Origin: Candidatus Dojkabacteria bacterium
GTDB taxonomy: Bacteria; Patescibacteriota; Dojkabacteria; J137
Reading direction: 5' to 3'
DNA length: 64,000 nucleotides
Assembly (NCBI GenBank): GCA_030834985.1
Contig: JAUQWV010000003.1
Location: 656-64,655 of the forward strand
Part shown: positions 1-22,666 of the stretch, piece by piece
Position numbering within the stretch: the stretch's first letter is position 1
Layout of the letters: each line of letters opens with the position of its first letter
Notes under the pieces: generated by a model
The model's input: only the letters and a program-made list of their open reading frames with translations
What the model was told of the DNA's origin: nothing
Databases searched by the model: none
Made by a program: the position numbers and the translations under genes

Positions 1-467
1 AAAATTACAGAAGGATTTTAAAAGTTCGAAGCCAGGCAAAGTATAGGCACTTTATGCTTTTAATTGAAAGTATACTTTCAAGCGAAAATATCTCTAAAAA
101 AGAATTCAACCGAAGATTAAGACATATGTTTGACCTCTATCATCACGATGTATTGGCCTTATCCATACTTGCAGACATTAAAAGAAAAGAAAAAGAACTG
201 CATGCACATAGGTTAATAAAGCATACTCCAAAGACTACTAATTTAATTGAAAGCTTTAATTCACAGCTTGAAGCCAGACTGGTTTCTATCCGTAGCTTTC
301 AGAGTTATGAACACGCAAGGTTATGGTTAAATGGGTATGTTTTAAAAAGAAGATTTACAAAATTTACCGACTGTAAAGGTAAATTTAAGAATTTAAATGG
401 AAAAAAACCTGTAGAAATCACATTACGAGAAGATAGGGTTTTAACCCCAATTTTTAAGAAAATATAG
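1..467 (+). CDS. DDE transposase, C-terminal part (IS256/ISL3-like); reading frame open to the 5' window edge, so partial
   Basis: TTNLIESFNSQLEARL and SFQSYEHARLWL match the conserved C-terminal motifs of mutator/ISL3 transposases. The frame stays open upstream to position 1. Confidence 0.6.
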   Translation, partial: NYRRILKVRSQAKYRHFMLLIESILSSENISKKEFNRRLRHMFDLYHHDVLALSILADIKRKEKELHAHRLIKHTPKTTNLIESFNSQLEARLVSIRSFQSYEHARLWLNGYVLKRRFTKFTDCKGKFKNLNGKKPVEITLREDRVLTPIFKKI

Positions 468-6400: not shown

Positions 6401-6590
6401 CTGGTAGGTTAAATGAAAATGGAGTACTTTCATCTTGAAAAGATAAGCTTCCCACCGCAGTAAGAGCGTTGTCAGCCTTTACAGGATTGCATACTGATGC
6501 AATAAAAGGGATAGACACTATAATCAGGAAAATATGAAAAACTCCAAGACCTACAATTAGAAGTCTTTTGTTATTATTTTTCATAGACAA
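441..6590 (-). CDS. Giant secreted surface protein (2049 aa). It has PPC-like and Ig-like domains, thrombospondin type-3-like Ca-binding repeats (DxDxDGLxDxEE), and a C-terminal module of TM helices alternating with CarboxypepD_reg-like domains.
   Basis: Long ORF with an N-terminal signal anchor, DSDKDGLTDKEE/DSDNDGLLDGEEV repeats, and a hydrophobic C-terminal region of TM, beta-sandwich, 2TM, beta-sandwich. The 3' end overlaps the transposase ORF. Confidence 0.8.
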   Translation of the reverse strand: MSMKNNNKRLLIVGLGVFHIFLIIVSIPFIASVCNPVKADNALTAVGSLSFQDESTPFSFNLPANVESVTITMQGEEGTDFDLFDITHSEMSFSYYSEERDTNYEEFTIDYPYEGTWYFDVYYPYGGSDIGGDFSVSVDYISSSYYEDPPNTVLSEVGQFDYDNFKEFSFSTPQNVKNVIVSVLGDSDVELGGLCGKYFCDMTYYPEDGKYMEVNSSMGVMYQDWIFDLYSASGGGYKVLVYYELEEGSSSTDIYTVTDTLDSDFNGHSFYYDGNAKRLIVSLITQDADVNDLMLEAGNWDYMLVASDNNLSTFYKSVVLEDPEEGTYDIQVYTDYYLSDPVDYEIKVFTEDFEEYSEAVSPTVTNGAVGKFDDATEAELAIGVEEDTDVVLLFASYKAYGGAGNRLSSIDTDEEEESFAQLMPYSSRGYPKCFPILENIPEPYSMVTEVWYYSHNLGVERTLELGFNFSGNKSNIRDLTLTAVALSNANQGFRFTDYGCASSGDANTSNFSVDTNAKSKDLVIGAVYTDSNVVLTPTYGEYIQSWNGSGYAFNAAFDYSSTLEWYSNEDVKNYTAVAVAVRADGPALSPNSYTYVPEGGGPSEDIDPPEFEFILAPGTIESNSIEFEGYIIDDVAVDYAEYQINDGDPEMLEIEGDHDYKYFWLYIEELELGSNIVSFTAYDESGKSTTESFTFNYVGYIDDYERPFCNLVSQESVVYSNQVTYSNIECQDDSGIAELQLIVTRDNLYDVLYNDMLPETVAQDGSLGDTHEVITFTIPIDLPDGIIFVRLNPIDIAGNGATYVGSDFFTLEAEDNTPPTLFLEPVRPDPIMDSTPSITGSCADNSLYDTNSVITSLRYSLDGGSWENITPLDGGFGNSVEKYSFDLPEISNGAHTIEVECDDDAGHTSTESDEFNIISPVNVDPELITETEDFEDHTNHVLSESNLIWGNGKLRLRETITTTRTSIDTTNYPTKYVNTAYNMYLIKSDPGNANRIWYSRTGEIVSYNISTDQVTPLNPTSWGLANLGAPIRSIEAVQLNGKTYLWVADGGKIQIYNLTDNTAIQINTGGTGAILPDSQRGRLGAYILINGNLRYLNLNGTLTDTSDDTFTNVTSAPLGSGVELYLDAPRNHLYISRYGFGMDRLNDNNTPLDFSDDVLTQYSNAQFENNGNVFSMLVDPNGYLLVGMAGFNQTGGLYVVLDPHTTPNNASDDTVLKLADSTQIKNLNVYDIVYVEGQNGVGDQLFLGGELGDAYYLNFNDTYTDLLDDTYIRLKITTNNRGVDTNYAYRGSANLIVKDYNTLYVNGDVDGFQKYDLNRGWEDDGQAVVYSTPEDRLFANFFELKEIKRISNIIVAEQIEPSNTIFNKLQDLLFPTVHAQAGSNAVYYSVSVDDGITWHPITLAEILNVNQNDYKVKFKIEMNQVNNSTPVLDSYTLAFGAYQDEEQAKNNYSLSINVLPNEVNPLENFALTIKVVDELGFTNTDYNGTLSISLIDSATSTNRTSWMNINSVNLVNGEATLNNASISNLGSFVITSTYEEETYFSNIISVVESIPDPVPAITFTANRYTINLGESVTLTWNASNLTSLNINRGVGTLNTFSGSTIVAPTTTTVYTIFGNGPYGSLEKSLTIIVNQPTGSSQDNNEESDTEDEDIDSDKDGLTDKEEATLGTDPNDSDSDNDGLLDGEEVKGCLFIKNTTECSDTTFPITDPNNANTDDDGLLDGEEVYGCYFRIGTIVCSTQKFDPTDPTDPNSPSKLPVSEMDDELDELLGTDRDAGNNTLEAQLLNIVNSVTDAISTTAKSGQLPAALVATTTAATVLTAASYPNSVLYAFVWFRKRKKQLSWGLVFDGLTNKPIPFVTVRLLELSGKFVTEEISDLNGKYSIVTTPGEYFVIAKVNGYKEFQLRVKLEGDTFNLEIPMTALDSKENKFYEVKRWFKENLFKINSLIFFIGLIFSIITLVIAPNLVNLVILFIFIIQVVVYYFIRRNKTGSVYDRQSGTKLSGIFVRVFERESGRQLGAAITNANGQYNWQCTISDSCPLYFLKNWG

Positions 6591-7974: not shown

Positions 7975-8001
7975 GGTCGCCCCGACTTGTTAAGTCGGGG
8001 C
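7975..8001 (-). terminator. GC-rich hairpin (ccccgactt gtt aagtcgggg) downstream of the 261-aa gene
   Basis: Perfect 9-10 bp inverted repeat immediately 3' of the stop on the minus strand. Confidence 0.45.
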
Positions 8002-8775
8002 TCCAACTGGAGATTGCGGGCGCAAAAGTACAATGTACCGCGCCCATATATACCAACTATCACGAGTATCCGGTGTATAAGGGCCCCACCCGCAGAATGC
8101 CATGATGACATACTGATCGGGAGAATCCATAGCATCCTGCCACACTTCGGCGTTTTCAAGGTCAAAAGCTTGCGCCAGACCTAGAATGTTCCGTGTGTTT
8201 GTTGAGTAAGCAGGAACGCCACTTGGATCGATGTAAGCGATCGCTGCTACATCGAACCGTAAGTCTACTGCCGGATTGCTCTGGCTGCCTTCTTCGCGGA
8301 TTCGCATGGTGTGATTCTGGCTTACGAACTCTGCAGTATTCTCGCGAATCCGCTCGTAGTTCGCGTCCAATTCCTCATTGGACATTGCTCTTTCCGGCCA
8401 AAGACCGGATTCAAATTCATGACGGAACTCCTCCCCTTCGAGAGGTGCACCACCGAATATACCAGAGTGTACAATCAAAAATGGGTTGCCCCAATCTTCT
8501 ATTGTCACAACTCCGGTATGCTGTCCTGGTTGAAAACGCCGATCACGAATATCCTCTAAGCTTACCTCACCCCCGTATATTACAGGAGTGAAGGTATGCC
8601 CCCAAAGCCGCGCACCGCTTGCGTTGTACACGCTGAATGTGATCGGCATTTCCCACCCATAACCCAGATCATTTTTTTGTTCTGGATCAGGAGTGGCTTC
8701 AGGCTCTTGAGCGCTAACCGTTAAGCTAGCAAGGGTTAAGAGGATTACAAACAGCAGAACTGCTATCGCTTTCAT
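7990..8775 (-). CDS. Secreted hypothetical protein (261 aa) in GC-elevated island 1
   Basis: Signal peptide MKAIAVLLFVILLTLASLTVSAQE. RBS-like gaaagg lies upstream. Composition is distinct from flanking genes. Confidence 0.7.
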   Translation of the reverse strand: MKAIAVLLFVILLTLASLTVSAQEPEATPDPEQKNDLGYGWEMPITFSVYNASGARLWGHTFTPVIYGGEVSLEDIRDRRFQPGQHTGVVTIEDWGNPFLIVHSGIFGGAPLEGEEFRHEFESGLWPERAMSNEELDANYERIRENTAEFVSQNHTMRIREEGSQSNPAVDLRFDVAAIAYIDPSGVPAYSTNTRNILGLAQAFDLENAEVWQDAMDSPDQYVIMAFCGWGPYTPDTRDSWYIWARYIVLLRPQSPVGAPT

Positions 8776-8805
8776 TTCAAACCTTTCGGTCTAGTCCAGA
8801 AATAC

Positions 8806-8832
8806 TTCGCCCCCCAGTTACGGGGGGCGAGT
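8806..8832 (-). terminator. GC hairpin (cgcccccc agttac ggggggcg) downstream of the 685-aa gene
   Basis: 8-bp G/C stem about 20 nt after the stop of the upstream minus-strand gene. Confidence 0.45.
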
Positions 8833-8850
8833 TAACTGGACGATTATAGG

Positions 8851-10908
8851 TTAGGCTGTCTTGACAGCGCGGCGGCGGGTTATTGCAACTGCGCCTACGA
8901 TGAGCGCACCACCGACGATCACTATACCGGACGGGAAACTGCTAGCTTCACCCGGACGCTCAGGCGAACCCGACTCCGGTGCCGGTTGAGGCGTTGGCGC
9001 GGGATCATCTGCGCGAACCGAGCAAACGCCGGGCTGGACATAGTCTAGCACCACAAATACTGCGCCATTGCCTCCTACCACACGGAATGGACCGTAGTAA
9101 TAGTCGGCATTGGCATTCTTGTGAATGCTAACTTCCCAGCCGCTGGTTTTCTGCTCCTGCTGGGGAACCCAGGCGTCCCACTCGCCCCATTCCTGTCCAT
9201 CCCAGCGCTGTACATACAGTGGCTCGGGTAGCGGATTGGGGAGGTACGCCAAGCATACAAACTGCGGACCGGGTAGCGGAGGCGGAGGTGGCGGTAACGT
9301 CACCGTAGCCGTGGGGACCGGATCGGTGGGGGTCGACGTTGGCTCAAACGGCTCACAGCTAGCGCTCGCCGTCCATGTAAAGTCGGGCGACAAACCGGGT
9401 GCCGTTACGGTCACTCCCTGACCGTTCGGAACAGCTCCCAAATCCATCGTATCTGTTGCTCCGGCCGCGACATTCCGCGTCGCGTTCACGAAGCCCGTTA
9501 CGGTAAACGTTACCGGCTGGTTAGAACCGGTATTATCGAACGTCAGTACTGCGGGAACAGCGCTTTCGCTTCCGTTCCAAACGCACTCGCCGACACTCAC
9601 ACTGACTGCTGGACCGAAAACATCCGGCGGGCAATTTGCTGCCGCCGTCCACGTAAAGTCAGGCGACAAACCGGTTGCTGTTACAGTTACGCTTTGACCG
9701 TTCGGGACTAGCCCTAGGTCAAGCGAATCCGTTACACCGGCTGCGACATTCCGTGTCGCATTTACGAAGCCCGTTACGGTGAATGTCACCGGTTGGTTCG
9801 ATGCCGTGTTGTTGAATATGAGTAGGGCTGGCGATTTGCTTTCGCCTGCGTCGTACACACACTCGCCGACGTTCACACTCACTTGCGGAGCGTAAACGTC
9901 GGGAACACAGCTAGCGCTTGCCGTCCACGTAAAATCGGGCGATAAGCCCGGTGCTGTTACAGTCACGCTTGCACCATTTGGGACTAGCCCCAGGTCCAGT
10001 GTGTCTGTTGCTCCGGCCGCGACATTCCGCGTCGCGTTGGCGTAGCCTGATACTGTGAACGTCACTGGTTGGTTCGACGCGGTGTTGTCGAATGTGAGCA
10101 CGGCTGGCACTTTACTTGCGCCAGCATCGTACATACACTCTCCCACGTTTACACTCACTTGCGGAGCGTAGACATCCGGGATGCAATTGGTATCGACGGT
10201 GAACGTTACTGGCAAGAGATACCAGTTTTGCTCTGCGCCGAGCTGTAGCTTGTACATGATAGTCACTGATCCCCCGTTATAGTCCTCGGGGAATGTTAGC
10301 GGAACGTTCACCGTGCTGAACACGGGAACGTTGACGATACTGTAAATCGGTCCGAATGGCTGCCCAGCGTATGGTCCCTGCGAAATCGTGCCAGGGAACG
10401 ATGGATGGCTTTCGTACGTCGGGGCTTGATCTCCCACCCGGTAGTCCCACGCGAATGCAAAGCGCGTGGAGTTGTTGAAGGTGAGTGTGGCGCCGCCACA
10501 CGTTGCCGTGTGAGACATGGTGGGCGGTGTACTCGGGAATGCGGTGTAGCTTCCGTTGCTGTCGCAGTCGGCGGAGGCGTCAAGCCTCCATGTGAACGCA
10601 CCAGTTGGCGGCACAGTAACATTTCCTACCGTTACCCAATCGGTGCCGGCCGGCAGTTGAGGGACGGGAAACGTCCCCTGACTGACGTTGTTTATGTACA
10701 CGACCACGTTTTGCGCGGCTTCGGTTGCGCCACTCAGATTGCGATAGCGCACCAAACCCTGTTGTGTAACTTCACCGTAGTAGCCGTTCGTGGCATTACA
10801 GTACCACGCTTGGACCGCTCCTTGCGGCGCGGCGAAGAAAGCCAACGCACCGATGAAGAGCGCTAGCCCCAACAAAGACCGCAGTAAGTAACTTAACCGC
10901 TGTTTCAT
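8851..10908 (-). CDS. Surface-anchored protein (about 685 aa) with three tandem ~92-aa Ig-like repeats, a Pro-rich stalk and a C-terminal TM anchor. It lies in the high-GC island.
   Basis: The start is set at ATG 10908 (MKQRLSYLLRSLLGLALF signal peptide), which is preceded by the strong SD GGAGGG. The ORF-track start at 11004 looks like a spurious extension. Three near-identical CxPDVYAPQVSVNVGEC...DFTWTASAS units. C-terminus is GIVIVGGALIVGAVAITRRRAVKTA. Confidence 0.75.
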   Translation of the reverse strand: MKQRLSYLLRSLLGLALFIGALAFFAAPQGAVQAWYCNATNGYYGEVTQQGLVRYRNLSGATEAAQNVVVYINNVSQGTFPVPQLPAGTDWVTVGNVTVPPTGAFTWRLDASADCDSNGSYTAFPSTPPTMSHTATCGGATLTFNNSTRFAFAWDYRVGDQAPTYESHPSFPGTISQGPYAGQPFGPIYSIVNVPVFSTVNVPLTFPEDYNGGSVTIMYKLQLGAEQNWYLLPVTFTVDTNCIPDVYAPQVSVNVGECMYDAGASKVPAVLTFDNTASNQPVTFTVSGYANATRNVAAGATDTLDLGLVPNGASVTVTAPGLSPDFTWTASASCVPDVYAPQVSVNVGECVYDAGESKSPALLIFNNTASNQPVTFTVTGFVNATRNVAAGVTDSLDLGLVPNGQSVTVTATGLSPDFTWTAAANCPPDVFGPAVSVSVGECVWNGSESAVPAVLTFDNTGSNQPVTFTVTGFVNATRNVAAGATDTMDLGAVPNGQGVTVTAPGLSPDFTWTASASCEPFEPTSTPTDPVPTATVTLPPPPPPLPGPQFVCLAYLPNPLPEPLYVQRWDGQEWGEWDAWVPQQEQKTSGWEVSIHKNANADYYYGPFRVVGGNGAVFVVLDYVQPGVCSVRADDPAPTPQPAPESGSPERPGEASSFPSGIVIVGGALIVGAVAITRRRAVKTA
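9358..10185. repeat. Three tandem ~276-bp coding repeats (about 80-90% identity) inside the 685-aa gene
   Basis: Repeated DNA blocks, e.g. ccgtccacgtaaa(g/a)tc(g/a)ggcga(c/t)aa(a/g)cc(g/c)ggt. The protein repeats are at aa 274-549 of the ORF-track numbering. Confidence 0.7.
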
Positions 10909-11171
10909 TGTGATCCCTCCTAGGATCGAGAACCGAAAGTGGGTACGATGGTGGCAGCAGTTGAACTGCTTCGACCGCACTGGGAACCTAATCGATAGAT
11001 TCACAAAACGGTCGAAGCAGCAGCTTAACCTAAATTATTAATTAATCTCCAGTTGTTAAAGAACTTTTGCAGGGCTTTAAGCCACTGCTCATTTTCTAAA
11101 ACTCAATAGAGATAAAGATATCATCTAAATGGTTTTATACCGGAATTATAGCAAAATATATTACAAATATA

Positions 11172-12518: not shown

Positions 12519-14888
12519 TTAAAAATTCTGCATCCAATTTATGGCCAGAATACTTAAGTCAGAAATATTTGTTATACCATCATTGTTAGCATCTGCTGTA
12601 TTGTTTGATTGATTCCAGTAAGTTGCTAGTATACTTAAATCAGATAAATTTACGGCACTATCTAAATTGAAGTCCCCTTTAGTTTTTAAAAAATATTGCT
12701 GAGCATTTATTTGAAATGTTGTTGTAACTTCACGATAATTTCCTACATTATCAAATGCTCTAACTGTTGCAGAGTGAGTTCCGTCTCCTAAAGCAGAAGT
12801 TGTGTATGGGGAAGTAACAGTACTAAAACTTCCTCCATTAATAGAGATTTGGTAGTGCGACATGCCAGATAACGAATCAGTTGTAGAAAAGCTCAATATG
12901 GCAGTCGCACTCAAACTTGTTTTCCCGATTGTAAAATTATTTGGAATAATTTTATCGATTCTTAAATTTCTATTAGATGATAATGTAGTGTTGCCTGCTA
13001 CATCTGTTGCCCTAACTCTCCATTGTTTATTGCCGCTTGGTATTGCCGATGGTGCAGTATGCGAAATTGCTGACAGGTCAGAATATGTTTCAACAGAATC
13101 TATAAGGATATCGTATGTTACTGGACCATTTGCATCAGTAGATGCCTGCCAAGTAAACTCCGGTAAATCATTATTAGTCCAATCAGTTGTCGGACCTGTT
13201 AAATTAAATACCGATGGAGGTGTATTATCTATAATTAATTCTAGAGTATCAGGATCAGATCGGTTTCCATTAAAGTCTTCTGCAATAAGATTAGCCATAT
13301 ATGTTCCATCAGGTTGATCGATATCTAAATCTATTAATGTTGTATTTGATTTATTGCCACGTCCGGTATACATATACGTTGTAGCATCGGGTCCAACTAT
13401 TGAGAAACTAATATAATATGCGTACAAATTTGTAGAGTTAACTGAGCCATTAAGCGCAATATTTCCTTTAAATAAATTGCTTGGAGGTTCTGTAAATGTT
13501 GCGGTTGGAGTTGCGCTGCCTAGTGCTGGGTCAGATAAAGATAGCGCGTTCAGCGCATTAAGTCTGCCAAATCCATACAAGGTGTCGTAACCAGCCGTAC
13601 CTTTATCTTCTGCAGTTGAAAGCAGCGCTTTTCGGATCTCATAATAACCCCAAGGGGTTATATCTTCTGAATGAAGGCTGTACAAAAGCGCTGCTACACC
13701 CGATACATGGGGCGCGGCCATTGATGTACCGCTAAAGCAGCCATATTTTACCGCGCCCACACATCCACTAGTAGGATTCTGCTTTGTCGTTAAAACTCCT
13801 TGTCCTGGAGCAATAATATCAGTTGCTAATCCAAAATTAGAAAATCCGCTACTAAAAACATCATTGTGATTAGCAGCATTTACAGTAATTACATTCTGTA
13901 AACCTGCAGGAGAATAAAATGATGAATCAGTGCTATCGTTACCAGAAGATGCCACCACTGTAATATCATTTTCTACTGCATAGTTAACTGCATCCTGCGT
14001 AACTTGCGAAAAGCCAGGTCCTCCAAGGCTTAAATTGATAATATTTGCACCGTTATCAACTGCGTATTCAATAGCTTCTGCCACAATCGGATCTGCAGTA
14101 CTATTTACTGCTCCAAAAACTTTTAAAACCATTATCTTGCATCCCCAGCAGACACTTGCAATGCCAGTTACATTGTTTGAATTGGCTGCAGCAATTCCTG
14201 CTGTGTAAGTTCCATGGCTTAATTGTTCTTGAATATTTGTAAAGTCGCTAGGATTACAGCCTGGCAGTGGTGTAGGTACACAGAGCGATTTTGCATAAAA
14301 GTTAAAACCGTTAATATCATCTATGTAGCCGTTGTTATCATCATCTACACCGGTTGCTCCATTCGCTTCAATAGTATTTATCCATAATTTATTAGTAAAT
14401 TCCGGATGAGTTAAATCTATCCCTGAATCTACAATTGCAATAATTGTATTTGTTGAACCTGTTTCGATTTCCCAACCTGAAAGGCCACCTGGCGGGTCAG
14501 TAACAGGATTTAGCCCTATTTTTCTTAAACTCCACTGATCGTACTGACCCGCCAAAAAAGTTCCTTGCGAAGCATAGTACTGGTCATCTGGATTAAGCAT
14601 TAATGAATATTCAACAATTGGAGTAACTGTTTCTACCAAAGGATTATTTATTATATTTGTATATTCATTTTTATCTGTAACATTTACTTTACTCCATTTA
14701 CTAAGTTCCTTTGATTTTGACCGACTATTAAAGCCATACTTTCCTGTATTTTTGTACTTAATAAGAAACTCACCTGATTTATACTCATTTGATTCAGCTG
14801 AAATTTGAAAGTTAGCCGCAAAAGAAGATACTAAAAAAACAAGCAGTAAAACTAAAAACGTAGTAGTAGATTTACGTAAATACATCAC
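12519..14888 (-). CDS. Subtilisin-like serine protease (peptidase S8) with FN3/Ig-like domains and a C-terminal type-I dockerin
   Basis: Catalytic triad motifs are AIVDSGID (Asp), HGTYTAG (His) and GTSMAAPHVSG (Ser). Two Ca-binding dockerin segments are present: DFNLDSAVNLSDLSILA and DANNDGITNISDLSILA. Confidence 0.85.
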   Translation of the reverse strand: MMYLRKSTTTFLVLLLVFLVSSFAANFQISAESNEYKSGEFLIKYKNTGKYGFNSRSKSKELSKWSKVNVTDKNEYTNIINNPLVETVTPIVEYSLMLNPDDQYYASQGTFLAGQYDQWSLRKIGLNPVTDPPGGLSGWEIETGSTNTIIAIVDSGIDLTHPEFTNKLWINTIEANGATGVDDDNNGYIDDINGFNFYAKSLCVPTPLPGCNPSDFTNIQEQLSHGTYTAGIAAANSNNVTGIASVCWGCKIMVLKVFGAVNSTADPIVAEAIEYAVDNGANIINLSLGGPGFSQVTQDAVNYAVENDITVVASSGNDSTDSSFYSPAGLQNVITVNAANHNDVFSSGFSNFGLATDIIAPGQGVLTTKQNPTSGCVGAVKYGCFSGTSMAAPHVSGVAALLYSLHSEDITPWGYYEIRKALLSTAEDKGTAGYDTLYGFGRLNALNALSLSDPALGSATPTATFTEPPSNLFKGNIALNGSVNSTNLYAYYISFSIVGPDATTYMYTGRGNKSNTTLIDLDIDQPDGTYMANLIAEDFNGNRSDPDTLELIIDNTPPSVFNLTGPTTDWTNNDLPEFTWQASTDANGPVTYDILIDSVETYSDLSAISHTAPSAIPSGNKQWRVRATDVAGNTTLSSNRNLRIDKIIPNNFTIGKTSLSATAILSFSTTDSLSGMSHYQISINGGSFSTVTSPYTTSALGDGTHSATVRAFDNVGNYREVTTTFQINAQQYFLKTKGDFNLDSAVNLSDLSILATYWNQSNNTADANNDGITNISDLSILAINWMQNF

Positions 14889-15197: not shown

Positions 15198-18100
15198 TCA
15201 CAAAGGTGCCAATTTGCTTAACACAATGTTTTTATTTATATATCCATTCTTTTTAATTTCAACAGGAACAATTTTTAACATGTTTTCATCTTTTGTACCG
15301 TATTTCATGTTGTAGCCTTTTTTATCAACTACGACATAATAATTGCCATGGTCTAAATCTAAGCTAACTTCACCTTTTTTATTTGTTGCAGCAATATCTA
15401 CTAGTTGGGCATCTTCATCGTAAGCTCTTAATACTGCACCTGCAATGCCTGAGTTAGTAGATTCATCAAGTACTTTATTTTTCTTTAAGAAGAACTGATA
15501 AAGCTTAGGGTAAGCAACAGTAATAAATATTAAGCTATAGATTATTAACAACAATACATTTTGCAAAGATGAATTTGCTACTTGATTGTAAATTGTATTT
15601 AAGAAACCAATAGCTGAAGCAACAAGTACAACTAAATTAAATAAGTTAAAGATTTGTGTTTTAGGTAAAGTTAAAACTTTTTTAGGTGTTAAATATACAT
15701 CATAAATTTGATTATCAAATTTAGATACTGCTTCATTTCTATCTAAAAACCTTAGATATTTATCGTAGCCAGCTGCTTGGACTTCTATAAACATATTTTC
15801 TTTTTGCTCTGAATCTAATCTATATTTACCGCCTAAATCAGTTAGTGTTCTCGCAACTACTGAGGTTTTAACTTTATTATTATCGATTGTTTCTTTTCTC
15901 AATAAGGTAACTATTGCTAGACTTACAGGAGCACCTGTTTGTTCATTTAAAACTATTCCCCAATATTCATTATCTAATGATTTAAAATAGCCAATAATTG
16001 CACTTATAGCTTTAACAGGATTTAGTAAAAGTAAGATCAACAAAGTACCAAGAGCTAAAAGCAATAAAGCAAGGAATATAAGAATTAGTGGGCCCTGTGA
16101 TTGAATAAACACTACACTACCTAAAACTGATCTTAAGAAACTTTGTATAATTGATGAACCAGAATCTACAATTGCAGGAACAAGTTCTTGTATCTCTGTT
16201 GTATCGTTTATAAATACAGAGGAACCATTCGGCTTATTAGTTACTGATGTATTTTTAATAGTGGTATTAGTTGTTGTTTGATTTGTAGTAGTATTTTGCG
16301 TACCACCGCCACCTCCACCAGGTCCACCGTTACCACCACCATTACCGTTGCCGTTACCATTCCCATTTCCTGGGTCATCGTCGTCGTCATCTTCTTCTCC
16401 AAAAGGGTGTTCATAAATCATTATTTTTCCGCGGTTTGTATCGTAAACATACAAATTATCGCCTTCATCAAAAGTCATAGCAAAAGGCCAGCCGTAAAAG
16501 TCTTCAAGTTGACCATCTGCAACTGCATACGCAGGATCTGATCTATTTGAAGGATTAAATTCAGTAGGGTCTTCAAAATACTCGATAAATCTTGGTCCAC
16601 TATATGGGTTGTACCCGGTAACCATTCTATTTTCGCTATCAAATGCGGTTTCAAAAGTAGATGGCGCAAAACCTGTAATTGGGTTAACTCGTGGGAATTC
16701 TTTAGCAGCTGATAATCCAAACACAACAGATTCTGGTGATGCTGGGAAAGAACTTGCAGCAAACATTAGGAGTCTCCAATTACCATCAATCTCAAAAAAA
16801 TGATCTGATACAAATAAATTACCATTATTATCTAAGGATAATGCACCAGGTAAACAAAGCATTGATCTATCGGCAGATTGACTGCCGTCTACGTTTGGCG
16901 GCGGCACAACTCCTCTGTTGCACTGAGTACCACCTAAACTAGTTTGCCCAAGCATAATATCAACAACTGGGTCTGTTAATGGATTTCGTATTCTGAATAC
17001 GCGATGATAATCGGTATTAGCAACCCAAAGATATTGGCCATCAGGTGACGGAGCAAGTCCTCCAAATGTATCTGCGACATTAACTGTGCCGCCGCCAGCA
17101 GCATTAAATGGACCTGTTAGTGTAACAAGTGGTTCTGACTCTTCTGTTAATGGAGTTTCAAAAATATCTATATGTCTTTCATAAATCGAAGATCTTACAA
17201 CATATATATGACCGCTTTTATCGGCTTTTAGTACGTTGTATCCAGGCTGTCCATCTAAAGGAAGTGCGCCATCTTCATAAGTTACAAAACCGTCTGCAAC
17301 TTTGCCGTTTGTAATACTCGATAAATCGTTCCAGAACATTAATCTTCCATCTGTTGCTATTAGCTGATCATCCACAACTGCTACTCCACCCCAACCGCCT
17401 TGTTCAAACCTATCAGGACTTGTTAAGTTGTATCCTCCGGGTAGAGAAAATAGACTCATGTCTGGTAAGTAATCACCTTCACCATTATCAAAAGAAAATC
17501 TTGCAACATCCTGCTGATATACATAAGCTGAAACTAAGATGTTCCCTTCAGTATCTATACCAACTGAACCACCTCCAGGATTCCAGTTAGTAAAATGATG
17601 TCCTTCTGATACGCCGTCTAGATCCCAATCTCTAAAACCTGCGCCTGCACCCTCATTTTCATATGTCCAAAAAATATTTCCACTAGGATCCATTTCAATT
17701 GCTACCAAACCATCTGGGAAATCACTATCATCAAGAATCGCAGTACCGCTCATACCGGAGGTAAAGGGTGCTGTGTATCGCATTACTCTATTATTACCAG
17801 CATCGGCGATAAGTAGATCTCCAGTTGAACCAAATCTTACTGCAGTAGGACTTTTTAAGTTAGTTGTCGAAGAACCCGATGCTGCCGAGGTAAAATTTGC
17901 TTGTCCAATCACAATATCTGCCGTTTTAGCTATTACACCGTCATTATTTGGAAACCTTAATACGCGGTTGTTTCCACCGTCAGCTACCCAAAGGTTTCCA
18001 TCAGCATCAAGCGCTACTCCAGCACCTCCATCAAAAGTTGAATAAAAACATATCGAAGAAGCAGTTGGTGCAGGTGTACTTTGGTTATAGCCTCTAGTTA

Positions 18101-18779
18101 AATTGCATTTATTCCCAGTAAAATTTACCTGTCCCCAAACTTCATCTGCAATTGAATCAGTAGTAAACGGATTAATATATTTTAAAACTCTGTGATTTTC
18201 AAAATCACCTACATATAGATTACCATCATCATCTACAAACATACTTGTGAATGTTTTATGCTCTAAAGATGTATGTGTCCACTCTGGAATTCCACAGATC
18301 GTTTCTGCGCCAGCTGGAGCTCTTTCTGGATAATATTGAAAACTTGAATCTCGATTACATGCACCCCAATCCGTTGCCGAAGGCTGACCTATTACAATAT
18401 CTGCAGCACATCGTTCTTCTTCATCTTTGAGATAACAATCTTCTAAATCAATTCCTATAATTCTACTGTTTCCAGAATCCCATACGTAAGCTCTCCCAGG
18501 ACTCTCTGATCTATCAACAATAACTCCTCCCGGTGATGAAACTTTATCTAGAACTATTTTACGCGGGGCAATTTCCCCGAAGTCCCTTTTTCCTAAAACT
18601 ATATCTGCCCATAAATCATTTGCTTCTCCACGTACTGCCCCGCCTTCAGCAGCACCAATATATGCTGCATACCAACTAGCAAAAAAATTACCTGATACAA
18701 AAAGAAAGACCAACAATATTGCTAAAACAGAAACTTGTCTTTGAGTTTTTGTAGCTCTAAATTTCTCTCTGCCTAACAC
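15198..18779 (-). CDS. Large (1193 aa) surface protein with NHL-repeat beta-propeller(s), an acidic/Gly-Asn low-complexity linker, and the same C-terminal TM/CarboxypepD_reg-like module as the 2049-aa protein
   Basis: GNNRVLRF, AGNNRVMRY and HRVFRI are NHL repeat signatures. DDDDDDPGNGNGNGNGNGGGNGG is the linker. The C-terminus has 3 TM helices interleaved with two GxxxGxYxL/AxGY beta-sandwich motifs. Confidence 0.8.
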   Translation of the reverse strand: MLGREKFRATKTQRQVSVLAILLVFLFVSGNFFASWYAAYIGAAEGGAVRGEANDLWADIVLGKRDFGEIAPRKIVLDKVSSPGGVIVDRSESPGRAYVWDSGNSRIIGIDLEDCYLKDEEERCAADIVIGQPSATDWGACNRDSSFQYYPERAPAGAETICGIPEWTHTSLEHKTFTSMFVDDDGNLYVGDFENHRVLKYINPFTTDSIADEVWGQVNFTGNKCNLTRGYNQSTPAPTASSICFYSTFDGGAGVALDADGNLWVADGGNNRVLRFPNNDGVIAKTADIVIGQANFTSAASGSSTTNLKSPTAVRFGSTGDLLIADAGNNRVMRYTAPFTSGMSGTAILDDSDFPDGLVAIEMDPSGNIFWTYENEGAGAGFRDWDLDGVSEGHHFTNWNPGGGSVGIDTEGNILVSAYVYQQDVARFSFDNGEGDYLPDMSLFSLPGGYNLTSPDRFEQGGWGGVAVVDDQLIATDGRLMFWNDLSSITNGKVADGFVTYEDGALPLDGQPGYNVLKADKSGHIYVVRSSIYERHIDIFETPLTEESEPLVTLTGPFNAAGGGTVNVADTFGGLAPSPDGQYLWVANTDYHRVFRIRNPLTDPVVDIMLGQTSLGGTQCNRGVVPPPNVDGSQSADRSMLCLPGALSLDNNGNLFVSDHFFEIDGNWRLLMFAASSFPASPESVVFGLSAAKEFPRVNPITGFAPSTFETAFDSENRMVTGYNPYSGPRFIEYFEDPTEFNPSNRSDPAYAVADGQLEDFYGWPFAMTFDEGDNLYVYDTNRGKIMIYEHPFGEEDDDDDDPGNGNGNGNGNGGGNGGPGGGGGGTQNTTTNQTTTNTTIKNTSVTNKPNGSSVFINDTTEIQELVPAIVDSGSSIIQSFLRSVLGSVVFIQSQGPLILIFLALLLLALGTLLILLLLNPVKAISAIIGYFKSLDNEYWGIVLNEQTGAPVSLAIVTLLRKETIDNNKVKTSVVARTLTDLGGKYRLDSEQKENMFIEVQAAGYDKYLRFLDRNEAVSKFDNQIYDVYLTPKKVLTLPKTQIFNLFNLVVLVASAIGFLNTIYNQVANSSLQNVLLLIIYSLIFITVAYPKLYQFFLKKNKVLDESTNSGIAGAVLRAYDEDAQLVDIAATNKKGEVSLDLDHGNYYVVVDKKGYNMKYGTKDENMLKIVPVEIKKNGYINKNIVLSKLAPL

Positions 18780-18851
18780 ACGACAAACGTTAATAATTAC
18801 TATCTTTTAGTATACACATTATTAAATTTGGAGGCTAGAAAAATCAAGAAG

Positions 18852-18924
18852 TATGCCCGGCACGATTCGAACGTGCGACCTACTGCTTAGAAGGCAGTTG
18901 CTCTATCCACTGAGCTACGGGCAC
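18852..18924 (-). tRNA. tRNA-Arg (anticodon TCT), no encoded CCA
   Basis: Reverse complement is GTGCCCGTAGCTCAGTGGATAGAGCAACTGCCTTCTAAGCAGTAGGTCGCACGTTCGAATCGTGCCGGGCATA. The anticodon loop is CTTCTAA and the T-loop is GTTCGAATC. Confidence 0.85.
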
Positions 18925-18965
18925 ATATATAGTGTAATTTTAACACTTTGCTTGAATTTTTAAAC

Positions 18966-19037
18966 TGAGCTGACCGAGACTCGAACTCGGAACCAACTGC
19001 TTAAGAGGCAGCTGCTCTACCATTGAGCTATCAGCCC
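18966..19037 (-). tRNA. tRNA-Lys (anticodon CTT), no encoded CCA
   Basis: Reverse complement is GGGCTGATAGCTCAATGGTAGAGCAGCTGCCTCTTAAGCAGTTGGTTCCGAGTTCGAGTCTCGGTCAGCTCA. The anticodon loop is CTCTTAA. Confidence 0.85.
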
Positions 19038-19104
19038 TTTCAAGCTTTTTAAGCTTGTGAATTATACCATTTCGATACTTGAAGTTAAAGTTATAGAAAG
19101 TGTT

Positions 19105-19125
19105 GAGGGAGCCTTCGGCTCCCTC
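19105..19125. other. Perfect GC hairpin with a UUCG tetraloop (GAGGGAGCC UUCG GGCUCCCUC). Probable terminator or structured RNA element at the edge of GC island 2.
   Basis: 9-bp G/C stem with a canonical UUCG loop, seen directly in the sequence. Confidence 0.45.
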
Positions 19126-19411
19126 GAAAAGAAATATTTGAGCGTTTGCCAAAACTACTTCTTTCGCCTGCGCGCTTTACGTCGCTCCTCCTTTTTGAAA
19201 GCACGAATCCGCGCACGCTTTTCAATTTGGCTCGGGCTCTTCATGACGCAACTCCTTTACTAGTATACGGTACCTTGATTGTACTATCTGTAAAAAGTTA
19301 TGTAAATATTAGTCAACTTAAATTGGAAAAATTTTCGAAGAAAACGATTACAGAGAAAGATACTCCGGCGAAACACCTTACCCTGCAATCGCCCTATTGG
19401 GGACGGAGACG

Positions 19412-20005
19412 CTAGTCTTGCTCGTCCTCGTCATCACTGTCGCGGCCGAAGTTTTCGCTGGCGCTAAAGCGATGAATGATGCTTCTCAGCACCAAAGTCA
19501 GCACTACAGCTGCAAGTCCATAACCGGCAACTGACCGCGCTTCTACTGCCAGCATATCCAACGTTTCAGCGGGCACTCCCGTGCCCCAGTGAATCGCGAT
19601 ACGCTCTGCAATGAAGCCCAGCGACGAGAACGCTTTTCCAGCAAAGAAAAGGGTACCTGCGAACGCGGCATCTCCCACGAATTCGGCGTATTTCCCGTGG
19701 CCGGGGACTGTGTCCAATGGCAAGGCTATAAGATAGCCCACCACGAACACAACGTAGTGGATATTTGCCACTACCTCCCAGACAATCGGTGTGATTACAA
19801 CGCCGGTAGGCAGATTCATGCCCAGGCGCGCGAAAAGGAATCCTCGAAAGAGGCTCGCAACCGCAGTTACCACAACGAGGACTACGAAGAGCCCCCAGAT
19901 AACGCGCTGATTTTCTAATACGCCTTTCAGGGATACTGATGGCAGACTGGGCGCAGAAACGCTCGGCAATGAAAACGGAAAACGCTTACCAGCTGTGTCA
20001 GACAT
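19412..20005 (-). CDS. Polytopic membrane protein (197 aa) with an acidic C-terminal tail, encoded in GC-elevated island 2
   Basis: Several hydrophobic helices. The tail is RDSDDEDEQD. Codon usage is rich in GCG/CCG/GGC, unlike neighbouring genes. Confidence 0.65.
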   Translation of the reverse strand: MSDTAGKRFPFSLPSVSAPSLPSVSLKGVLENQRVIWGLFVVLVVVTAVASLFRGFLFARLGMNLPTGVVITPIVWEVVANIHYVVFVVGYLIALPLDTVPGHGKYAEFVGDAAFAGTLFFAGKAFSSLGFIAERIAIHWGTGVPAETLDMLAVEARSVAGYGLAAVVLTLVLRSIIHRFSASENFGRDSDDEDEQD

Positions 20006-20046
20006 TGACTGTCTCCTTTGAACTATTTGCCCATTCGATATACGAT

Positions 20047-20105
20047 TTGTGCCGGAGCATGTGTGTACAGTATTATACGCACATGCTCCGGCACAAGGTA
20101 ATTTT
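20047..20105 (+). terminator. Strong 17-21 bp perfect inverted repeat (ttgtgccggagcatgtg ... cacatgctccggcacaa) followed by a T-run, at the right boundary of GC island 2
   Basis: The stem is at 20047-20063 and 20080-20096, followed by ggtaatttttg. Confidence 0.5.
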
Positions 20106-20246
20106 TGTATCTTTCTCTGTTAATGTGCTAAAGCTTTATCTAAAAAGCATTTATATTATCATTATATAGATTTAGCCATAAGTTGTCAATATTTGGCAAC
20201 AATATAGCCTAGTGCTAAGTTGCCTTATATGTGCTACATTTAATAT

Positions 20247-20516
20247 ATGAAGCTTCATTTTGAGGAACCAAAAGATTATACAAGAGAAAATAGTGCTATT
20301 TTCGAGTTTTTTGCGAACAAAGAAGACGACTCTATGCAGCCAAAACTGCTGAAAGGGAAATCGCTAGCAAGGCTTATTGAAGAACGAAAAATCAGTAATT
20401 ATTACAAGAAAAAGAAGGATATAAGGAAAGACTTAAAACTTTTAAATATTCTAGTAGTATTTAGTTCAATAATATGTCTAATCTTTATTATTTTTTTGCT
20501 AACTAGGCCTATTTAA
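20247..20516 (+). CDS. Small (89 aa) tail-anchored hypothetical protein
   Basis: Charged N-terminal region and a single C-terminal TM (LNILVVFSSIICLIFIIFLL). It overlaps the convergent downstream gene by 8 nt. No recognisable family. Confidence 0.35.
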   Translation: MKLHFEEPKDYTRENSAIFEFFANKEDDSMQPKLLKGKSLARLIEERKISNYYKKKKDIRKDLKLLNILVVFSSIICLIFIIFLLTRPI

Positions 20517-21060
20517 AATCACCAAGATCCATCTGCTCCTGCTCCCCTATTAAATCGTTTAGATTTTGTAATATAAACTGCCTTACAACTTCGCGGAATT
20601 GTTCGATATCATTACCGGGATTGGTAACGTAGTAATCATAAATGAACTGCGCAGTTCTGGAATCTGCAGGATTATCAAACCGCTCAATACCTTCTCTATC
20701 TATATGTATTGTCTGTGCTTCGGGATACTCCTGTAAAAGTTTCGCAATCTCTTCGGGCTCGCGTATATGCAAAAATACTATCGAGTTATCTTCTGTTTGA
20801 GCAATCTTTTCAAGTAAATATCTTGTAGGCCTGTTATTATCAGCAACCATCATCTGCTTAATTTCATGCATTCTAAATCTTATTGAGGCATCTTTTGTTA
20901 TACCATCCCAGCCTTCGTTATCCTTTAACCATTGCTTAACTTCATCTACTGAAGAATATGTAGCAACATTCACATTACCTGCAAAAAGTTCACGCGTAAG
21001 GTTAATAAACGTGTCTTTACCTGTGCCTGCTGCACCATTGATTACAAACACTCTTTTCAT
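20509..21060 (-). CDS. P-loop nucleotide kinase, dNMP-kinase-like (phage T4 gp1-like)
   Basis: Walker A variant VINGAAGTGKDTF resembles the GxxxSGKDT P-loop of dNMP kinases. Size is 183 aa. Confidence 0.55.
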   Translation of the reverse strand: MKRVFVINGAAGTGKDTFINLTRELFAGNVNVATYSSVDEVKQWLKDNEGWDGITKDASIRFRMHEIKQMMVADNNRPTRYLLEKIAQTEDNSIVFLHIREPEEIAKLLQEYPEAQTIHIDREGIERFDNPADSRTAQFIYDYYVTNPGNDIEQFREVVRQFILQNLNDLIGEQEQMDLGDFK

Positions 21061-21069
21061 ATTGTGAGA

Positions 21070-21840
21070 TTAATTGTTTCTTAATTCTAACAAACTTCCC
21101 ATACCGACAGATTTACTAAATTCTTCAATTTGCCGAATAAAGAATTTAATACTATTTCCCCAATTATGACATTCTTCCTGCGGGCCACAGAATGTTCCCT
21201 CCATTAAGGATGGATCTTCCATATATTGAGTTCCATAGTTTTCAACCAGTACTTTTGTTACTCTATCTATAGATTCTTCAAAATTAGAAAATTGAATTCT
21301 ATTTACGCCACCACCTCCAAAACCCCAACAGTTAAACATTTCAGCAGATAGTTGATATTTACATAAATTAGTTTCATTACGTGCAATTGCAATAACCGTT
21401 ATGCAGTCTTTTGGGGCACCATACTGGTCACACTTTTCTACAAAATACTTACCATACCCAAATAGTGGAGAATCATTAGCTAAAAAATATTGATCGAATA
21501 CAAAAGCCCGTTTATCTAGCAGATCAATAGTAGAGTTTATCTTTTTTTCCTGGTAAGCAATTCCTAAAACTTCTGCTCTATTATTTACGGTAATTGCTGA
21601 AGGATCTACATTTAAAGATGCTTTATAGTACGACTCTTTTGCATCAACTGAATACGAGGTGAAATTACCATTAATAATATGCCCCAGTTCATTAACACCT
21701 AAGCCAAGAATTAATAGTAAGAATAAGTAATATGTCAGTTTATATGGCTTAAGTTTTTTAATTCGGAGTTTTCGGTACAATCTTTTCTTAAAAGGTCTCA
21801 ATAAAGAAACCTTTTTTACTCTCCCTAATTTTTGATCCAT
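21070..21840 (-). CDS. Membrane-anchored hypothetical protein, possibly a glucosaminidase-like cell-wall hydrolase
   Basis: N-terminal basic segment plus TM. The FNCWGFGGGG block is weakly reminiscent of the NNLFGIKG glucosaminidase motif. Low-specificity call. Confidence 0.5.
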   Translation of the reverse strand: MDQKLGRVKKVSLLRPFKKRLYRKLRIKKLKPYKLTYYLFLLLILGLGVNELGHIINGNFTSYSVDAKESYYKASLNVDPSAITVNNRAEVLGIAYQEKKINSTIDLLDKRAFVFDQYFLANDSPLFGYGKYFVEKCDQYGAPKDCITVIAIARNETNLCKYQLSAEMFNCWGFGGGGVNRIQFSNFEESIDRVTKVLVENYGTQYMEDPSLMEGTFCGPQEECHNWGNSIKFFIRQIEEFSKSVGMGSLLELRNN

Positions 21841-21889
21841 TAAATTATTCTACCAGAACAGAAGTGAAATGGCACTCACCGTTAGAAGT

Positions 21890-22666
21890 TTAATCAAGAA
21901 GAGTTAATATCTCTGGCTTGCCTTTTCTTACTATAACCATATGCTCAAACATTACCCCCTTGGAGCCATCAACCGTTTTTAAACTCCAGCCATCGTTGTC
22001 TAAATATAGATCAGCTTTACCTAGTGTGAGCTGATTCTCTATACACAAACACATTCCTTCAACTAAATCTATCTGCTCCATTCCAGGGTATGTATATGTT
22101 AAAATCTCAGGCTCCAGCCATAGCTGTTTTCCTATACCATGTCCGCAGTATTGTCTTACAAAGTTAAAGCCTGCTAATTCTGCTACTGATTGCAATGCTC
22201 TTGAAATATCCGATACTTTATTGCCAACTATTGCTTCTTTGACTGCAGTATTTACACATAACTTACCAGTTTCTAGTAATCGTTTCTCCTCACTTGTAAT
22301 ATTACCTAAACCTACTGTTACACAATGATCAGTATAAAAGCCGTTGTATATTAATCCAAAGTCTATTTTTACTAAGTCGCCATCTTTAAATTCAACAGTG
22401 CTGTGAGGAATACCATGTAAGATAGTGTCGTTTACACTTATGCAAACTGCTGATGGAAATGCACCTTTTGGGCCAGGTACACCTAAGAATGCGGGTTTAA
22501 CACCTTTTTTAGTACACAAGGTGGTTACAAGCTCATTGATATCACTTGCTCTGATTCCAATTTTTACAGAACCTCTTAGCTCTTTTAGAATTTGTGTGGA
22601 AATTTCTGCAGCCTTTTTTACAGAAGTATAGTCGCTTTCAGTTTTAATTATATTTTTGTAAGACAT
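21890..22666 (-). CDS. map: Methionine aminopeptidase type I
   Basis: Pita-bread fold motifs: DGDLVKIDFG, HGIGKQLWEP-like, and the MEQIDLVEGMCLCIEN metal ligands. Confidence 0.9.
   Translation of the reverse strand: MSYKNIIKTESDYTSVKKAAEISTQILKELRGSVKIGIRASDINELVTTLCTKKGVKPAFLGVPGPKGAFPSAVCISVNDTILHGIPHSTVEFKDGDLVKIDFGLIYNGFYTDHCVTVGLGNITSEEKRLLETGKLCVNTAVKEAIVGNKVSDISRALQSVAELAGFNFVRQYCGHGIGKQLWLEPEILTYTYPGMEQIDLVEGMCLCIENQLTLGKADLYLDNDGWSLKTVDGSKGVMFEHMVIVRKGKPEILTLLD

Follow-up and report, generated by a model that had tools for sequence, protein, structure and literature searches.

Does a GC-rich patch beside tRNA genes in an AT-rich genome mark a recently arrived island, or can it be something that the lineage has long carried? 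We take up this question for a segment of about 1 kb that adjoins tRNA-Arg and tRNA-Lys genes in a 64,000-nt stretch of DNA, hereafter the window (contig JAUQWV010000003.1, positions 656 to 64,655, assembly GCA_030834985.1, deposited as a Candidatus Dojkabacteria bacterium), whose nearest public relatives are Saccharibacteria (TM7) metagenome-assembled genomes (MAGs), three of them fetched through Map. A preliminary description of this DNA regarded the segment, which encodes a 197-aa membrane protein, as a compositionally foreign cassette bounded by a perfect inverted repeat and furnished with its own terminators, and as the second of its kind after an “island 1” in the same window. That description is partly confirmed. 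We propose, with a probability of roughly 0.55, that the segment is an ancestral expression cassette restricted to Saccharibacteria, with structured mRNA ends, and not a recent foreign island.

An ancestral GC-rich cassette beside tRNA genes

Against a window background of about 34% GC, which includes a minus-strand ribosomal-protein/SecY/Map operon, GC content rises beside the tRNA genes in two blocks, 19100-19250 (about 0.50) and 19350-20050 (0.51-0.59), separated by an AT-rich spacer (19250-19350, GC 0.27); the interval 19364-20106 is about 55% GC. The GC-rich stretch reported earlier is thus there, as two blocks with a gap, and it also deviates in GC at third codon positions (GC3), which is 0.58 in the 197-aa open reading frame (ORF) and 0.60 in a neighbouring 29-aa ORF, as against 0.11-0.32 in some 50 other ORFs of the window. 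Only the two island-1 ORFs have a similar GC3 (0.46 and 0.61). The compositional anomaly sits at synonymous sites.

The exact 197-aa protein was found in 33 blocks of a public assembly collection, always with the same neighbours, on at least 23 contigs from many samples; these contigs match the window at 98.5-100% identity. Among 1.84 billion representative proteins, a profile search returned seven true relatives, all in a Saccharibacteria context, and a word-indexed search added one more. The loci of these relatives and the three genomes reached through Map give the nine species-level lineages with the gene that are compared throughout (loci and contigs are numbered with the prefix L). Family ORFs are GC-rich in all of them (GC 0.47-0.55, GC3 0.48-0.69), in loci that are 0.34-0.46 GC overall and, where longer, 0.34-0.39. 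It had been suggested that sister genomes would decide whether the segment is foreign. In the sister lineages the homologous cassette is ancestral, GC-rich within GC-poor genomes, and mostly syntenic, including its adjacency to tRNA-Lys and tRNA-Arg, and these findings argue against foreignness.

In most of the nine lineages the neighbourhood reads SecY-Map-p256-p183-p89, cassette, basic peptide, tRNA-Lys, tRNA-Arg. The window order SecY, Map, p256, p183, p89 (opposite strand), cassette is repeated in L057/L059 and in L065; in the former it goes on through the basic-peptide ORF, tRNA-Lys and tRNA-Arg towards an NHL protein, and in the latter it reaches only the peptide ORF, at which the contig ends. 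In L015 and L060 the cassette stands behind a giant surface protein and ahead of tRNA-Lys, in L015 with the basic-peptide ORF as well, and in L014 it is displaced to a position between p183 and p89, with the peptide and tRNA genes 7 kb away. The cassette is followed by tRNA-Lys in L015, L057, L059, L060, L062 and L066, and by tRNA-Arg as well in L015, L057 and L059. Within 8-10 kb downstream of Map, loci L016-L019 contain neither the ORF nor the motifs described below. Between lineages the cassette protein is 24-34% identical, compared with 79-82% for SecY, 73-78% for Map and 57-61% for p183, and it is the fastest-evolving gene of its block. We regard it as established that the cassette is ancestral and self-contained, and that its GC-richness is conserved.

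Structured and complementary mRNA ends

The cassette is read from the minus strand, on which all features in this section lie. A promoter-like site, TTGACA-17 nt-TATAAT (20161-20189), agrees with the consensus in all 12 of its positions and lies about 40 nt ahead of an element that we call A, and promoter-like hexamers can be read at the equivalent site in relatives. Near the inferred 5' end of the mRNA, the minimum-free-energy (MFE) fold of the full-length transcript contains a small hairpin, P1 (approximately 20133-20152, GCUUU/AAAGC), whose arms covary in relatives (AGCUA/UAGCU, AAGUUC/GAACUU, AGUCA/UGACU). Element A itself (ACAGAGAAAGAUAC, 20107-20120), recognized through inverted-repeat and motif searches and folding, lies in the 5' leader; across lineages it is 13-14 nt long and has the form (c)auuaACAGAGAAAGAYR. 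It is followed by P2, a large GC-rich hairpin of the 5' untranslated region (UTR) at 20047-20096 (-39.2 kcal/mol, z = -9.7), the 3' arm of which contains CUCCGGC. The outer stem of P2 (GCCGG.../...CCGGC) is constant while its inner stem and loop vary by lineage, and RNAalifold assigns it 19 pairs over the 9 lineages, 8 of them with compensatory double changes. A Shine-Dalgarno (SD) sequence, AAAGGAG (20013-20019), read directly from the sequence, stands 7 nt ahead of the ATG of the 197-aa ORF (19412-20005), with SD-like sequences at the same place in all relatives.

Beyond the ORF lies a terminator-like hairpin in the 3' UTR (19342-19394; -24.2 kcal/mol, z = -5.7), rich in G.U pairs and followed by a short U run. 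Its general form is CGAAUCA-UAGAGAAGGGUA-loop-UAUCUUUCUCUG-UGAUUCG, then 3-4 U, and folding of the alignment gives 20 pairs, many of them G.U. Since a G.U pair finds no equivalent in the complementary strand or in double-stranded DNA, the hairpin is specific to the sense strand and works as RNA. Its 3' arm holds element C (GUAUCUUUCUCUGU, 19350-19363), the exact complement of element A, found by inverted-repeat search and folding. Its loop holds element B (GCCGGAG, 19363-19369), which complements the CUCCGGC of P2 and is backed by a compensatory change in L014. Covariation supports P2 as well as the 3' hairpin. In every family locus that covers both ends, the ORF is flanked by a single A and a single C, and the loci devoid of the ORF have neither. 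A metagenome scan with the leader pattern CATTRACAGAGAAAGATAC gave 37 matches, all attributable to chance and none with a paired 3' element or an ORF, and a scan of viral contigs for the 3' motif gave no matches.

Elements A and C form a perfect 14-nt inverted repeat (19350-19363 / 20107-20120) that brackets the GC-rich gene exactly and had been overlooked; allowing up to two mismatches, the motif occurs at just these two sites in the 64-kb window. The repeat that had been noticed earlier, at 20047-20096, is present, as 21 nt with one mismatch or 17 perfect nt, and not as the perfect 21 bp first reported. Nor is it the boundary of an island, being the P2 hairpin in the 5' UTR of the 197-aa ORF. 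The T-run beyond it, which had led to its description as a terminator, lies on the plus strand, antisense to all nearby genes, and is missing from several of the relatives compared. As an intrinsic terminator the stem would have its hairpin and T-run on the plus strand only, with no gene upstream there. The idea of a compositionally deviant cassette with its own terminators holds insofar as the unit is discrete and self-contained, with its own promoter and 3' hairpin, but the stem at 20047-20096 does not terminate the gene. An Rfam scan passed the two tRNAs and otherwise gave sub-threshold noise on the palindrome.

The two long-range helices, A with C and B with the P2 arm, were scored on a hand-built alignment in which the four core elements of each lineage were joined by poly-A spacers. 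Together they comprise 20 pairs, all of which are paired in the five distinct haplotypes of the nine lineages, against 38-57% in slid controls. One A:C pair changes in compensatory fashion from GAUA/UAUC to GACA/UGUC in L057, L062 and L065, and one B:P2 pair from CCGG/CCGG to CCAG/CUGG in L014, where GCUGGAG faces CUCCAGC; two further changes in these helices yield G.U pairs (L064, L065). Since C is both the exact complement of A and the 3' arm of the 3' hairpin, A amounts to a perfect Watson-Crick version of that hairpin's imperfect 5' arm. Co-folding of the two UTRs produces the A:C helix in 8 of the 9 lineages, and the joint fold is more stable than the separate ones by 3-20 kcal/mol. Folding of the full-length transcripts (about 790-1110 nt) gives A:C mean pair probabilities of 0.71-0.996 in 10 of 10 cases and includes the helix in the MFE structure in 8 of the 10. 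In the six lineages for which the transcript was truncated at its 3' end, the probability that the SD and start codon are unpaired was essentially unchanged. That the UTRs are structured, with a covarying complementarity between the 5' and 3' ends, we take as established.

Predicted structure in the coding region

The ORF, too, has an established excess of predicted structure. By dinucleotide shuffling, z is -3.9 for the window ORF and -2.7 for that of L057, compared with +1.2 for the neighbouring p183. In synonymous-codon shuffles, which keep both the protein and the codon usage (24 per ORF), 10 of 11 family ORFs proved more stable than all 24 of their shuffled versions (z from -0.4 to -8.8, mean about -3.4), while 18 control ORFs gave z from +0.64 to -3.45 (mean about -0.9). 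The island-1 ORFs resemble the family in this respect (z = -6.3, -3.3 and -3.1). A consensus structure computed for four allele sequences about 30% apart has 95.5% of its cells paired and 13 compensatory pairs, against 41-48% of cells paired in slid controls, and in none of 500 shuffles were the observed cells paired, double-changed cells or covariation score reached.

Replacement of alleles between otherwise identical genomes

Variation at this locus is concentrated in the gene. Contig L011 (from SRR17055916; allele B) and the window agree at 100% of positions over 20133-22633 and 18975-19243, while in the contig alignment the tract 19246-19960 differs with identical flanks on both sides: the spacer ahead of the peptide gene is about 90% identical, and the ORF is about 70% identical overall (59-73% per 100-nt bin). 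Contig L012, from another sample, has a third allele (C), that of SRR27460160, in a background 99-100% identical to the window; allele A is represented by SRR17055905 and SRR17651514. Divergence sets in about 15 codons into the ORF in allele B and at the start codon in allele C, and in both it ends past the 3' UTR. Between alleles, the number of synonymous substitutions per site (dS) is 0.7-1.06 and the ratio of non-synonymous to synonymous substitution (dN/dS) is 0.17-0.23, and the neighbouring p183 is 99.3-100% identical between the allele backgrounds. The alleles are themselves mosaic, B and C being 94-100% identical in their 3' third and different elsewhere.

Replacement of alleles between strains appears established from these alignments, and the pattern fits old alleles, or orthologues of diverged lineages, that would have been moved by homologous recombination. 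The nearly invariant UTRs would make plausible anchors for such exchange. Neither local hypermutation nor a diversity-generating retroelement accounts for the alleles: the former does not fit their pattern, and in place of the adenine-specific changes in a short repeat that would mark the latter, the substitutions are ORF-wide, symmetric in direction (for example, A>G 24 and G>A 20, T>C 23 and C>T 18) and accompanied by the same low dN/dS. A tblastx comparison found no silent paralogous copies elsewhere in the window that could feed gene conversion. In the 256-aa ORF, a 200-nt patch at 21133-21233 has 92-95% identity in L002/L005 in a background of 98-100%, which suggests a further short tract of recombination among these strains.

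The membrane protein

The product of the ORF was described from the start as a polytopic membrane protein of 197 aa, and the AlphaFold2 model bears this out: with nine sequences it shows four long hydrophobic helices (pLDDT 77, pTM 0.68), while a model from four sequences was poor (pLDDT 55). Family members are 188-283 aa long and share an invariant loop motif, P-x-D-T-x-P-G-x-G-K-x-x-E-x-x-G-D, or more fully ALP(L/M)DT(V/I)PG(K/R)GKxxEFxGD. The Pfam and NCBIfam profile searches proposed earlier for this protein returned nothing below E = 0.1, and protein searches against phage and plasmid proteins gave no matches. Foldseek against the PDB gave a best E of 0.34, with a query-normalised TM-score of 0.16, the highest such score among the 50 hits listed being 0.37. 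As far as can be seen from these searches, we are dealing with an orphan envelope protein that would be restricted to a Saccharibacteria clade from bioreactor-type samples.

The basic peptide ORF and the tRNA genes

Downstream of the cassette, again on the minus strand, lies the 29-aa K/R-rich peptide ORF (19155-19244), which has an AAGGAG SD and a promoter-like site at 19278-19306. What had been offered as a possible basic peptide is backed as a gene by this SD and by K/R-rich peptide ORFs at the equivalent position in seven other lineages. The family, whose peptides are 27-44 aa long with a C-terminal motif such as KKRxKRxxLRRxKKEQRRxRR, matches nothing in Pfam or NCBIfam. The members in L015 and L014 lie at 19838-19972 and 13086-13169, respectively. 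The gene has its own conserved promoter-like TTGACA..TAAAAT, SD and downstream GC hairpin, and it always stands just upstream of tRNA-Lys(CUU), with tRNA-Arg(UCU) next where the locus is long enough. In the window the hairpin, between the peptide ORF and tRNA-Lys, is at 19105-19125 (minus strand; -18.4 kcal/mol, z = -4.7), and relatives have GGGCAGC..GCUGCCC hairpins at the equivalent place. It had been described with a UUCG tetraloop; the hairpin is real, but that loop exists on the plus strand only, the loop in the sense of the gene being GAA.

The tRNA genes, supported by tRNA calls and Rfam, are tRNA-Lys(CTT) at 18966-19037 (anticodon CUU) and tRNA-Arg(TCT) at 18851-18924 (anticodon UCU), both on the minus strand. 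Codon usage in the peptide family is atypical: AAG serves for 39 of 52 lysines (background 24%) and AGA for 1 of 75 arginines (background 65%). Attenuation through a leader peptide that senses the adjacent tRNAs is half consistent with this usage, the codon of tRNA-Lys(CUU), AAG, being enriched and that of tRNA-Arg(UCU), AGA, avoided. On the other side of tRNA-Lys, a contig from SRR25397366 (L006, 1340-4733) departs from the window order 6 nt past the gene and continues with a 135-aa ORF, a methyltransferase and a CTP synthase, and many other contigs end at 18975, within tRNA-Lys (region 18960-18975). These observations suggest that the 3' side of tRNA-Lys may be a point of strain-level rearrangement.

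Neighbouring genes and island 1

The 89-aa ORF (20247-20516, plus strand) and the 183-aa P-loop-like ORF (20509-21060, minus strand, with a weak AAA_18 match) converge with an overlap of 8 nt, and the pair is kept in all relatives, L014 having the whole cassette between them. Giant predicted surface proteins surround the tRNAs, at 441-6590 (2049 aa), 12519-14888 (789 aa) and 15198-18779 (1193 aa, with NHL repeats and CarboxypepD_reg domains); a homologue of the 2049-aa protein lies directly upstream of the cassette in L015 (12560-18799), so the neighbourhood has been rearranged between species. Two contigs with Saccharibacteria-type gene order, L069 (CAJPFV010000716.1) and L059 (JAWXCF010000098.1), have been deposited as parts of one Anaerolineae and one Bacteroidota MAG, probably through misbinning to which the GC-rich genes possibly contributed.

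Island 1 spans 7990-11055 and contains the two ORFs with GC3 of 0.46 and 0.61. Its 5' leader has a 12-bp GC-rich stem (10966-11020), and its 717-aa ORF has its probable start at MKQRL, 32 codons inside the frame as listed. In L070 a copy-number variant is shorter, at 501 aa, and is missing about 270 nt of the tandem-repeat region. A 12-nt perfect inverted repeat flanking the two-gene unit (8004-8015 / 11044-11055) is at chance level, some 0.6 being expected by our estimate and three of 12-13 nt found.

Discussion

Several considerations weigh against our reading. The transcript ends are inferred only from the promoter match and the hairpin, and the U run past that hairpin is short (3-4 U). With 11 of 13 A:C pairs invariant and just two compensatory pairs across both helices, the evidence for pairing is mostly sequence conservation together with complementarity; conservation this strict suggests an additional constraint, such as a binding site for a protein or a third RNA, and is equally compatible with an inverted repeat that acts at the level of DNA. 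Thermodynamic folding ignores the kinetics, ribosomes and entropy of real cells, and closure leaves the predicted accessibility of the SD unchanged, so that any regulatory output is hypothetical. The consensus structure of the ORF was derived from the same four sequences on which it was counted, and 2 of the 18 control ORFs are themselves at z of about -3.4, which makes the excess structure a shift in distribution and not a unique property. The contigs that document allele replacement are short-read unitig assemblies (Logan).

This last point bears on the thought that the deep allele differences are chimeras, assembled from two species with shared UTR k-mers. The contigs do come from automated short-read assemblies, and the UTRs are conserved enough to share 31-mers. 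L011, however, crosses both junctions without a branch, its flanks being 100% identical over 2.6 kb and 0.27 kb, and its divergence is graded, from about 10% in the spacer to 30% in the ORF, which makes an assembly chimera unlikely; a third allele, in another sample, likewise has flanks 99-100% identical, and B and C are mosaics themselves. We give this explanation a very small chance, and we give a smaller one still to the idea that a GC-rich donor recently supplied a foreign island, integrated at tRNA-Lys/tRNA-Arg by the route of island 1, which is hardly credible. That idea has in its favour the contrast in GC3, the similar GC3 of island 1 and, as in tRNA-associated genomic islands, a compositional anomaly next to tRNA genes. 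Such islands differ from the cassette in the remaining respects, since it is conserved, syntenic and equally GC-rich in nine lineages with 73-82% identity between their core proteins; its position is 5' rather than 3' of tRNA-Lys; and there is no attachment-site-like repeat of a tRNA end, the sole tRNA-like repeat being a 15-nt match at 80%, which is at chance level. No integrase or recombinase domain came up when the cassette ORF and its immediate neighbours, the 29-aa ORF, p183, p89 and p256, were scanned with Pfam. The search of 1.84 billion proteins gave no convincing member beyond the seven Saccharibacteria-context proteins, and neither phage and plasmid proteins nor viral contigs gave a match to the protein or the 3' motif, respectively. 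Integration of a foreign island at the tRNA genes is thus largely refuted, and a common donor for the two islands finds no support, as they have neither sequence similarity nor a flanking motif in common. In both, GC3 is high and the predicted mRNA structure exceeds that of synonymous-codon shuffles, and for these traits a shared cause is possible. What does hold is that the cassette moves horizontally, but as alleles within the lineage.

If the cassette is native, its 14-nt inverted repeats could act in DNA, either delimiting an invertible segment (a phase switch with the promoter outside) or serving as terminal repeats of a small mobile cassette. As in invertons, short perfect repeats bracket a segment with a consensus promoter just outside; the repeat is nearly invariant across species, beyond what RNA pairing needs; upon inversion, the P2 stem and plus-strand T-run would serve as a terminator; the L014 cassette lies elsewhere, between p183 and p89; and contigs L003 (19375) and L012 (19360) end at or near element C. 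The cassette differs from invertons, however, in having a single orientation in the nine lineages and in all listed contigs that span a repeat-flank junction, and no recombinase domain among the neighbours scanned. Locally, element C faces a degenerate copy with which it can pair only by way of G.U wobbles, meaningful only in RNA, and G.U pairs occur in the long-range helices as well (L064, L065). In L014, moreover, the promoter and P1 have moved with the cassette, so the 14-nt repeats are not its termini. We hold an action in DNA to be improbable. A role of the RNA pairing in processing or read-through, instead of stability, is doubtful, though to a lesser degree: the duplex of A:C and B:P2 (about 21 bp) could form a stalk of the RNase III type, or element A could act as a long-range antiterminator against the 3' hairpin and in this way set transcription into the downstream peptide and tRNA-Lys/Arg genes. 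In favour are the perfect Watson-Crick match of A to the sequence of the hairpin's imperfect 5' arm and the greater stability of the joint fold, and in all lineages but L014 a peptide ORF or tRNA-Lys does follow in the same orientation. But the peptide gene has its own conserved promoter-like sequence, in L014 a distance of 7 kb separates the cassette from those genes, and during transcription the local hairpin should prevail over a partner 750 nt away.

The remaining alternative is that the cassette encodes a harmful membrane protein whose mRNA folds back and stays untranslated until its 3' end is trimmed. This recalls hok of the type I toxin-antitoxin system hok/sok of plasmid R1, in which the 5' UTR pairs over a long distance with a 3' UTR sequence at the extreme 3' end, the tac/fbi helix, and a full-length membrane-protein mRNA is thereby closed and stabilised (PMC9841398). 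The cassette is like hok in its conserved long-range 5'-3' pairing, known here in silico only, and in the stable, heavily structured membrane-protein mRNA, but the two are unrelated in sequence. Closure of the hok mRNA hides the SD, and translation is activated by trimming of the 3' end, whereas in the cassette the SD and start codon are predicted to be equally accessible with and without the 3' element, and the design must differ to that extent. The hok product is a toxin of about 50 aa accompanied by an antisense RNA; that of the cassette is a four-helix protein of 188-283 aa (about 200 aa in the window) under purifying selection, not a toxin peptide below 60 aa, and an antisense RNA is not evident, with no plus-strand promoter-like site in 18700-20700. 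We consider a lock of this kind very unlikely.

In the icaR mRNA of Staphylococcus aureus, the 3' UTR pairs with the mRNA's own 5' UTR to give a double-stranded region; it is the SD region that is paired there, which blocks translation and recruits RNase III (PMC3868564). In the cassette, by contrast, the pairing involves a leader element that precedes the SD by about 100 nt and competes with the mRNA's own 3' hairpin. An anti-SD match of the icaR type in the window allele (GGAGAC/GUCUCC) is lost in allele B, and it is element A, not the SD, that forms the conserved partner of the 3' element.

The 5' and 3' flanks of 16S and 23S rRNA also pair, into processing stalks that are substrates of RNase III. 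Here, as there, the flanks of a long, structured, GC-rich RNA pair in a helix of about 20 bp next to tRNA genes, but what is enclosed in the cassette is an mRNA that codes for a protein, with purifying selection acting on it (dN/dS about 0.2), and a stalk role is a prediction. The cassette would work most like the hok tac/fbi and icaR pairings, yet it fails the defining features of both. More speculatively, and we think this rather unlikely, it may be an RNA device of an undescribed kind: a rod-like, closed, GC-enriched mRNA whose end pairing and internal long-range helices would be co-selected with the coding sequence, giving a persistent or dual-function RNA (stored, processed or exported) in these ultra-small epibionts, with invariant ends that double as recombination anchors.

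Under our preferred reading, that of an ancestral expression cassette with structured mRNA ends, a sigma-70-type consensus promoter would drive an mRNA consisting of P1, a single-stranded element A, P2, the SD and ORF, and the G.U-rich 3' hairpin, with a predicted 5' end some 7 nt past TATAAT (near 20154) and a predicted 3' end just beyond 19342. The 3' hairpin would fold first, during transcription, and may help to terminate the transcript or to shield it. Once the RNA is complete, element C could leave its place in the hairpin arm to re-pair with element A of the leader, and the second helix, GCCGGAG with CUCCGGC, would extend the first, the two closing the whole mRNA as a panhandle atop an unusually structured, GC-rich coding region. 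The outcome might be a long-lived transcript or one whose processing is controlled. Synonymous GC would be kept for the sake of RNA structure, although GC-biased gene conversion at a recombination hot spot may contribute. With a fast-evolving ORF between UTRs that hardly vary, the cassette would behave as a portable unit, deeply diverged alleles of which would be swapped between otherwise identical genomes by homologous recombination.

If this is correct, a GC-rich patch in an AT-rich candidate-phyla genome should not automatically be taken as foreign, since here it is a vertically inherited gene with GC-rich synonymous sites in every lineage examined. To our knowledge, conserved 5'-3' UTR pairing in bacterial mRNAs has few known cases (hok, icaR), and post-transcriptional control in Saccharibacteria is almost unexplored. 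The cassette offers a comparative-genomics case of such pairing, in which the 5' partner appears to mimic an arm of the mRNA's own 3' hairpin, and with it a testable model. Alleles with a dS of about 1 in an otherwise identical background point to the precise replacement of a single gene, anchored on ultra-conserved UTRs, and the cassette would thus be a natural case in which biased gene conversion can be set against selection for RNA structure as the driver of local GC content.

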